The position numbers and the translations under genes are program-made. Under the pieces are notes generated by a model, which saw only the letters and a list, made by a program, of their open reading frames with translations, did no database searches and had not been told where the DNA came from. Of a stretch of 64,000 nt of DNA, positions 51,619-53,356 are shown piece by piece. The number at the start of each line of letters is the position of its first letter. Position 1 is the stretch's first letter. The DNA lies in sequence record KX130862, one strand, 5' to 3'. Source of the stretch: Shigella phage SHFML-26.

Positions 51619-52548
51619 ATGTCAGGATATAATTCTCAGAATCCAAAGGAACTCAAAGATGTCATTCTAAGACGTTTAGGGGCTCCGATTATTAATGTTG
51701 AGTTAACACCCGATCAAATCTACGATTGCATCCAGCGTGCCCTAGAATTATACGGTGAATACCATTTTGATGGACTTAACAAAGGTTTTCATGTATTTTA
51801 TGTAGGAGATGACGAAGAAAAATATAAAACCGGAGTCTTCGATTTAAGAGGTTCCAACGTATTTGCAGTAACCCGCATTTTACGCACAAATATTGGGTCA
51901 ATAACATCTATGGATGGAAATGCTACATATCCATGGTTTACTGACTTTCTTTTAGGAATGGCTGGTATTAATGGCGGAATGGGAACGTCTTGTAATAGAT
52001 TTTATGGACCAAATGCCTTTGGAGCTGATTTAGGATATTTTACTCAACTTACCAGTTATATGGGAATGATGCAAGATATGCTCTCTCCTATTCCAGACTT
52101 TTGGTTTAATTCAGCAAATGAACAGCTCAAAGTCATGGGAAACTTCCAAAAATATGATTTAATTATCGTAGAAAGCTGGACTAAATCATACATTGATACT
52201 AATAAAATGGTTGGAAATACAGTAGGATATGGAACAGTCGGTCCACAAGATAGCTGGTCATTATCTGAACGATATAATAACCCAGACCACAATTTAGTTG
52301 GTCGCGTTGTTGGTCAAGATTCGAATGTTAAACAGGGTGCTTATAATAATCGTTGGGTGAAAGACTACGCTACAGCTTTAGCTAAAGAATTAAATGGCCA
52401 AATTTTAGCACGTCACCAAGGAATGATGCTTCCTGGAGGTGTTACAATTGATGGACAACGTTTAATAGAAGAAGCTCGATTAGAAAAAGAAGCATTACGC
52501 GAAGAATTATACTTACTTGACCCTCCAGTGGGAGTGTTAGTTGGATGA
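51619..52548 (+). CDS. 13: neck protein gp13
   Basis: 309 aa. Confidence 0.9.
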
Positions 52549-53006
52549 ATTATACTAAAATTTACGACTCTCTTATAGAAAGATCTCTTAAAAGAGGTCT
52601 TAATAAGAAAAAATTAGATTATTATACAGAATCACACCATATTGTCCCAAAATCCATGGGAGGAGATGATTCTAGAGAAAACAAGGTTTTACTGACAGCA
52701 AGAGAACACTATTTTGCACATGAGCTTCTTTTTAAAATACACCGAAATTCTGAAATGGCTTATGCCTTAATAAAATTCTCCAAGGGTACAAAAGAGCAGA
52801 GAATTGTAAGTAAAGATTACGGATGGATTAAAGAGGAAACATCTAAAATTAGATCAGAAACCATTAAAAAGTTTTGGGCGAATCTATCACCAAATTTAAA
52901 ACAGGAACGAATTAAAAAAGCCGGAAAAGGCATTAAAAAACTAAATCTTTATGGACAGATGAAAAGAGAAAAGAAGTTAATGCAAATATTCGAAAAGCTT
53001 CAGTGA
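52545..53006 (+). CDS. HNH homing endonuclease (nuclease domain), inserted between genes 13 and 14
   Basis: HNH motif [27 protein letters not shown]; start overlaps gene 13 stop. Confidence 0.75.
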
Positions 53007-53356
53007 AATATTTGGAATCGTTATCAGAAAACGAAATGTTAGAATATAAAGAAAGATGTTCTAAACAGATGAAAGATTTTTGGTCTGAGCTTAAAAGTGA
53101 CCCCCAAAAATACGAAAAGTATTTAAATAAACTATCTAAGGGTCTTGCAAAAGTCGAAAAGAGAAATTGCCCGCATTGCGGAATTATATGTGATGTAGGA
53201 AATTATGGAAAATACCACGGCGATAAATGCAAAGTTATCACGGGTGTATCTCATAGCAGAGAAAAATTAAAATGCCCGCACTGCTCTAAAATCATGGATA
53301 AGTCTCACGCTAAAAGATACCATTTTGACAATTGCAAATTTAAGAAGGTCGAATAA
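53003..53356 (+). CDS. zinc-finger protein, probable DNA-binding part of the HNH endonuclease in the -1 frame
   Basis: Two CPHC...H...C zinc knuckles; GTG start overlapping HNH ORF stop by 4 nt. Confidence 0.55.

Follow-up and report, generated by a model that had tools for sequence, protein, structure and literature searches.

What occupies the boundary between the neck genes 13 and 14 of Shigella phage SHFML-26, and why is its reading frame split in two? To answer this question, we analyzed a 64,000-nucleotide (nt) stretch of the sequence record KX130862, referred to here as the window, which is a segment of a T4-like (Tequatrovirus) genome. In T4, a single base separates the stop codon of gene 13 from the ATG of gene 14 and no gene lies between them, as the initial annotation of the window, made from the sequence alone, had stated. 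In the window, that annotation placed at this junction an HNH nuclease open reading frame (ORF1) and a second ORF in the −1 frame (ORF2), which carries two CPHC motifs and overlaps the first by 4 nt; the coordinates, frames, and motifs were all found as described (Table 1). The ATG of ORF1 overlaps the stop codon of gene 13 as ATGA, ORF2 overlaps the stop codon of ORF1 by 4 nt (GTGA), and the product of the following gene 14 matched the Pfam family T4_neck-protein (E 1.3e-138). Alignment of the 13/14 junction with T4 and its relatives, a check proposed in the initial annotation, showed that the insertion boundaries are precise. Together, the two ORFs make up a single gene for a free-standing HNH homing endonuclease. 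Annotations of this gene already exist for T6 and about 35 further T4-like phages; the finding is thus real but ordinary.

One homing endonuclease gene between genes 13 and 14

A megablast search with the window region 52000-53900 matched 505 phage records, 45 of which contained the whole insert. The insert alone used as a query returned the same 45 records with 95.9–99.9% identity, among them the two T6 records and the RefSeq entry of T6, while 457 of 514 records had an uninterrupted 13/14 junction free of the insert. In 41 of the 45 records, the insert was 813 nt long and consisted of a single ORF of 270 amino acids (aa). The two-ORF layout is therefore not conserved, and the proposal of the initial annotation that a single endonuclease, composed of a nuclease and a DNA-binding module, was interrupted by a frameshift is borne out. 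Every annotated copy that was fetched was a single 270-aa coding sequence (CDS), named homing endonuclease, HNH endonuclease, or "similar to mobile endonuclease D". Addition of one A to the window sequence produced a 270-aa ORF 100% identical to the proteins of Pu-Krd-SF5, CrRp10, and BCPEco_001, and one PHROG family, phrog_655 (homing endonuclease), covered residues 1–267 of the protein (E 2.7e-52). The T6 homing endonuclease YP_010067306.1 (KMB99_gp239) is encoded by the same gene, with the same insertion site and junctions as in the window. Near-identical or identical genes, with 99–99.9% nucleotide identity, are also present in CrRp10, YUEEL01, fPS-2, Pu-Krd-SF5, and others. Compared to the T6 gene and its near-identical copies, the window copy is short of one A in a run of seven (A7), which results in two ORFs.

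Alignment with the intact copies placed the lesion in a run of six A (A6) at positions 52935-52940, where intact relatives have A7. The intact copies read GGC ATT AAA AAA ACT (G-I-K-K-T) at this point, and the window reads GGCATTAAAAAACT. ORF1 corresponds to the intact protein up to residue 132, after which 21 out-of-frame codons follow. The second frame stays open from position 52937 onward; the GTG start assigned to ORF2 at 53003 is the internal codon V154 of the intact protein, and ORF2 comprises its residues 154–270. The frameshift predicted in the initial annotation is thus real, but the interval 52995-53010 proposed for it is not its site, since the missing A lies about 65 nt upstream. 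Besides this 1-nt contraction, the window copy has no change relative to the intact copies. Its reading frame is not intact, and the sequence in its present form corresponds to either a pseudogene or a gene that was mis-sequenced. The two ORFs should be annotated together, as a single gene with a frameshift.

The selective constraint acting on the intact gene was evaluated from the ratio of nonsynonymous to synonymous substitution rates (dN/dS), with the window haplotype compared to the most divergent same-site GenBank copies (sutha and RPN226; dS 0.16–0.19). The dN/dS values of intact copies were 0.05–0.08, equally low for residues 1–130 and 131–270. Judged by these values, the intact copies are under strong purifying selection, and the intact gene is predicted to be a working gene. 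Literature searches yielded no paper describing the 13/14 endonuclease, no cleavage or homing assay, and no experimental characterisation of the copies in T6 and the other phages.

The HNH domain in ORF1 was recognized by the Pfam HNH_4 model with a score of 26.5 bits against a cutoff of 22. In an alignment of 66 sequences, residues E29, H31, H32, N46, H55, and H59 were invariant, and the alignment profile matched the HNH domains of McrA, a group II intron maturase, and Cas8-HNH in PDB (6ghc, 6me0, and 8ydb). The AlphaFold2 model of the intact protein, built with the same alignment, had a mean predicted local distance difference test (pLDDT) score of 92. It consists of a small HNH unit (roughly residues 25–66), five long helices (residues 90–203), and two knuckles of a beta-hairpin plus a helix (residues 206–233 and 241–264). 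In the second knuckle, residues C244, C247, H260, and C264 are invariant across the family. The C-terminal helices and the CCHC knuckles presumably bind DNA. Pfam NUMOD3 was found in many relatives, in which the match falls in the C-terminal helical region, while the protein itself did not reach the Pfam threshold for NUMOD3. The paired CPHC-x12-H-x3-C knuckles matched no curated Pfam family, and the NCBIfam search gave no meaningful match for the protein. The same two-part design, an HNH nuclease joined to small DNA-binding modules, is known for I-HmuI and the RB3 form of I-TevIII; both are intron-encoded, whereas the window gene is free-standing. Such a "beads on a string" design has been described for HNH/NUMOD3 homing endonucleases (PMC2988022).

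The C-terminal knuckle alone (residues about 238–270) was also found, with 41–71% identity, in more than 20 viral contigs of IMG/VR that had nothing else detectable in common with the endonuclease gene. This zinc knuckle appears to be a widely shuffled small module.

The N-terminal 117 aa of the protein share 47% identity with T4 MobD (NP_049710.1; E 4e-32), and the similarity ends there. The tblastn search also matched genes annotated as mobD or mobE. Like the window gene, itself predicted to be promoterless, T4 mobD and other members of the Mob family (MobA-E) are free-standing, intergenic, promoterless, and sporadic (PMC2988022). However, the site of T4 MobD is nrdC.11/mobD.1 rather than 13/14, its C-terminal half is unrelated, and it has no CPHC knuckles. 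Orthology with MobD, suggested by one GenBank annotation, was rejected because the similarity is confined to the HNH domain, and none of the T4 mob genes is orthologous to the window gene. The protein is a Mob-type free-standing HNH homing endonuclease.

More distant copies, designated P0002 and P0004, with 52–57% identity and the same architecture, were located directly upstream of the T4_neck-protein gene in divergent T4-like contigs. Since divergent copies occupy the same 13/14 site, this homing endonuclease lineage is old there, and the site is an old, stable niche. The scans of IMG/VR with the endonuclease and gp14 yielded one further identical copy and few T4-like contigs, and GenBank phage records were used for analysis of the flanks.

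Table 1. Coordinates of the 13/14 endonuclease gene, its parts, its flanks, and other endonuclease genes in the window
Feature	Position	Strand	Basis or remark
wac	50130-51587		Flank of the insert region
Gene 13	51619-52548		Directly 5' of ORF1
Recoded 3' end of gene 13	52528-52548	+	Junction comparison
GGGAG Shine-Dalgarno-like motif, 10 nt upstream of the endonuclease ATG	52530-52534	+	Read from sequence
Whole Mob-type HNH homing endonuclease gene	52545-53356	+	812 nt here, 813 nt intact
ORF1, HNH, 153 aa	52545-53006	+	
HNH catalytic core (H31, H32, N46, H55, H59)	52635-52721	+	Pfam HNH_4/HNH
Neighbouring A6 run, A5 in ERR8314753	52909-52914	+	Independent frameshift allele
Lesion, A6 for A7	52935-52940	+	Alignment with intact copies
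C-terminal part, long helices and zinc knuckles	52937-53356	+	−1 frame; frame and structure model
Out-of-frame ORF1 tail, 21 codons and stop	52941-53006	+	Not in the native protein
ORF2, 117 aa, GTG start, two CPHC...H...C motifs	53003-53356	+	−1 frame relative to ORF1
Zinc knuckle 1, CPHC-x12-H-x3-C, intact residues 209–229	53168-53230	+	Motif and model
Zinc knuckle 2, CPHC-x12-H-x3-C, intact residues 244–264	53273-53335	+	Motif and model
Right junction: AAGAAGG, then TAA-T-ATG (= T4 13/14 TAATATG)	53342-53360	+	
Gene 14	53358-54128		Followed by genes 15, 16, and 17
Seg-type GIY-YIG gene	38212-38808	+	Pfam SegE_GIY-YIG, NUMOD3, I-TevI DNA-binding domain
277-aa GIY-YIG-motif protein with NUMOD3 and I-TevI-type DNA-binding domain	1627-2457	−	

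Origin of the frameshift

The quality of the record was assessed by comparison of every annotated protein of two relatives with the window, supplemented with DNA alignments. A GG to G contraction at position 15011 frameshifts a 119-aa homologue of ECO4-gp122. ORF-breaking 1-nt contractions were also found in vs.1 (CCCC to CCC, position 20388) and e.3 (CC to C, position 25684), and in both cases T4 and ECO4 agree against the window. In gene 23, which starts at 63746, the region 63884-63914 contains five single-A insertions within 31 nt relative to 215Ecol030PP (cagacagActAccggaatAataaagAacgaaaaaattAgctcagg). With a net gain of 5 nt, the reading frame of the essential major capsid protein meets a stop at about codon 56. 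Since a viable phage cannot carry a truncated gene 23, the record contains indel errors, and the clustered gene 23 insertions almost certainly arose as errors of the source record. Together with the contractions, they point to a systematic indel problem in the sequence, and the loss of a base in an A7 run would be expected in a record so prone to indel errors. The record should be checked for homopolymer errors, as it contains at least four lesions other than that in the endonuclease gene, including the one in gene 23.

The initial annotation offered three explanations for the interrupted frame: a decaying element, a sequencing indel, or a recoding site. Because the same window carries other evident indel errors, we favor the sequencing indel and consider it probable that the missing A is an error of the sequence record; the gene of the phage itself would then probably be intact. 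An error is the likeliest explanation, although for this particular base it is what we infer. Several observations weigh against it. The same A7 to A6 change is present in F1 and FN on a different haplotype: the window copy is of the Pu-Krd-SF5 type, while F1 and FN are of the 215Ecol030PP type, the source of the F1 frameshift allele being phage vB_EcoM_F1 (L003). In ERR8314753 (Logan, L072 66-880), the neighbouring A6 run is shortened to A5 and an in-frame TTA insertion is present, and the UNVERIFIED record CJY920 (L065) contains an additional A at the position corresponding to 53101-53105. With such frameshift alleles in other assemblies, real slippage mutations at A runs are plausible. Homing endonuclease genes are, moreover, dispensable and known to decay. 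The missing A may therefore be real, a very recent slippage mutation that inactivated the endonuclease and marks an early phase of its decay; this possibility is to be taken seriously, but we hold it to be distinctly less probable than an error. After a real lesion, what remains would be a 153-aa HNH fragment ending in a nonsense tail of 21 aa, and a zinc-knuckle half that is translated poorly or not at all. A real lesion would agree with the independent frameshift alleles of F1/FN and ERR8314753, which fall in the same 30-nt A-rich stretch, and with the dispensability of a gene that is absent from about 457 of the 514 records; defunct endonucleases such as I-TevIII are also known in T4 (PMC2988022). 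On the other hand, the window copy is otherwise unchanged, the intact copies are under strong purifying selection, and other homopolymer indels in the record break conserved genes, including the essential gene 23.

Readings in which the split frame would itself be functional fare much worse. The A run could act as a recoding or contingency site, at which a −1 slip of tRNA-Lys on AAA AAA or transcriptional slippage would take place, but this is very improbable. Just as improbably, a full-length enzyme would then be produced at a low regulated level along with a truncated nuclease, and the A7/A6 alternation would serve as a reversible on/off switch. In favor of this reading, slippage in the P site on AAA AAA would lead back exactly to the native ..GIKKTKS.., and the three frameshift alleles are grouped within two neighbouring A runs. 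Slippage of Lys-tRNA is known in general, and the next 0-frame codon, CUA, is rare in E. coli. However, 41 of the 45 records are in frame, and a two-frame layout is not conserved. The 0-frame sequence ATT AAA AAA CTA, with the context T AAA AAA C, has no canonical X XXY YYZ heptamer, and no downstream structure was predicted, the fold of 52925-53030 having an energy of −10.7 kcal/mol and z = 0.20 versus shuffles. The KK codons are not conserved in the same-site copies with 52–57% identity, and the P0004 gene (L070) lacks any stretch of six or more A or T. Since A6 occurs on two different haplotypes, on which it has arisen, it is the derived state. It is likewise hardly credible that the adjacent runs 52909-52914 and 52935-52940 form a slippage-prone switch, in which reversible A7/A6 (or A6/A5) changes, combined with infrequent −1 slippage of tRNA-Lys ahead of the rare CUA codon, tune or toggle the output of a potentially toxic endonuclease; such a switch would explain the three or four independent frameshift alleles clustered in a short stretch. 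A small −1 leak is conceivable, but nothing suggests programmed recoding. The least probable alternative, which we regard as extremely unlikely, is that the ORFs are two genuine genes with their own starts, encoding a small HNH nuclease and a separate zinc-finger protein. Two genes are annotated in phage F1 by RefSeq, and the GTGA overlap could in principle permit termination-reinitiation. Nevertheless, such a layout is not conserved among the 45 records, neither GTG 53003 nor ATG 53036 is preceded by a Shine-Dalgarno-like motif, and a single profile family spans both halves. In addition, native residues 133–153 would be missing from both products, while the ORF1 tail consists of 21 residues foreign to the intact protein, the frame closing 21 codons past the lesion.

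Cassette edges and the predicted homing site

The edges of the insert were defined by comparison of 12 insert-bearing and 11 insert-free junctions. The last 21 nt of gene 13 contained eight substitutions perfectly linked to the insert. The insert-bearing form ends with GTG GGA GTG TTA GTT GGA TGA (..VGVLVG*), and the insert-free form with TTT GGA ATT TTG GTA GGT TAA (..FGILVG*); the junction sequences are CCATTTGGAATTTTGGTAGGTTAATATGGCT in the T4 form and CCAGTGGGAGTGTTAGTTGGATAATATGGCT in the recoded form. Polymorphisms located farther upstream, as well as all those in gene 14, are shuffled between the insert-bearing and insert-free classes. The right junction, TAATATGGCT, is identical in both classes, and the 3' end of the insert supplies AAGAAGG, a Shine-Dalgarno-like motif for gene 14. 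At the left edge, the linked substitutions create a GGGAG motif, the putative ribosome-binding site of the endonuclease gene as read from its position. No late promoter TATAAATA was found by the motif scan on the plus strand of the region 45205-57303. A promoter or terminator of its own was not found for the gene either, the counts of sigma-70 promoters and terminators being equal to the shuffled expectation.

The eight-substitution block at the end of gene 13 is the part that is new in this analysis. It marks the left edge of the mobile cassette and is probably the protected homing site. An allele with the recoded block but without the insert was searched for with a synthetic query, and no contiguous case was present in 655 matching records, the best contiguous match being 91.9%. 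The top match to such an empty but recoded allele, BYEP02, was rejected, as it represents a local duplication with an ordinary insert-free allele.

The record of Escherichia phage BYEP02 (OR757454.1, L075 497-1031) contains tandem duplications at the 13/14 junction and split neck-protein CDSs. This duplication looks like an assembly artefact in that public record.

The mechanism of homing may be proposed by analogy with MobE. In phages lacking it, MobE, encoded by a promoterless cassette, nicks an adjacent conserved gene, and the flanks are co-converted (PMC2790892, PMC2988022). Polymorphisms at the nick site in mobE-bearing genomes were proposed to block self-nicking (Wilson and Edgell 2009, PMC2790892), and they parallel the eight linked gene 13 substitutions of the window. 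The window gene, whose insertion between the neck genes extends exactly from the ATGA overlap with gene 13 to the original TAATATG junction, would likewise be a promoterless cassette. In a mixed infection, a competitor lacking the insert would have its 13/14 junction nicked or cut by the intact enzyme, and repair templated by the insert-bearing genome would copy the gene into the competitor. The carrier genome would be shielded by the insertion itself and by the eight linked substitutions at the end of gene 13. From this resemblance to MobE, we infer that the target of the enzyme is the insert-free 13/14 junction and that the linked block and the insertion may protect the carrier. The analogy has its differences: the target of MobE was mapped and lies in the nrd region, while that of the window gene is predicted and lies in the late structural operon, and the DNA-binding region of MobE differs from that of the window enzyme. 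Against a protective role, the linked block could be just the cassette edge and the ribosome-binding site, with no part in immunity.

In the divergent phages carrying a copy at the same site (L070 1-40 and L071 200-270), the last codons of gene 13 also differ from those of T4. The gene ends there are ..PPFGILLG*, in which five of the last six sense codons are not those of T4, and ..PPMGIIIG*. These ends are compatible with a target lying in the last codons of gene 13.

Endonuclease genes in late operons

The initial annotation regarded an endonuclease lodged in the late structural operon as unusual, but such a position is not unusual in the T4 late operons. In T4, genes 23 and 24 are separated by segD, and 5.1 and 5.3 by segC (PMC2988022, Table 1). 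Like the 13/14 gene, they are homing endonuclease genes of late operons, but they belong to the GIY-YIG rather than the HNH family. The window itself contains a Seg-type gene in the baseplate operon, between the homologues of genes 5.1 and 5.4, in the same niche as T4 segC; this gene is absent from 215Ecol030PP. Relatives of the 13/14 enzyme in other phages adjoin genes for baseplate, tail-completion, and DNA-end-protector proteins.

Another GIY-YIG gene of the window (1627-2457) is located between the nrdG and nrdD homologues, at the position where a homing endonuclease is annotated in ECO4. At the equivalent position, T4 has mobC. The window gene may be a SegH-type replacement, reportedly described by Sandegren et al. 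in 2005. In the tRNA region (28096-30426), the alignment to 215Ecol030PP was patchy, with about 28520-29361 and 29903-30426 unaligned, and the content of the region differs. In T4, segB lies in that tRNA region.

This class of genes has been understood since the work on the T4 mob and seg genes, and the 13/14 endonuclease matters little as a discovery. The linked eight-substitution block, in turn, offers a specific prediction, open to experiment, of where an uncharacterised Mob-like enzyme homes and of what makes the carrier genome immune to it.

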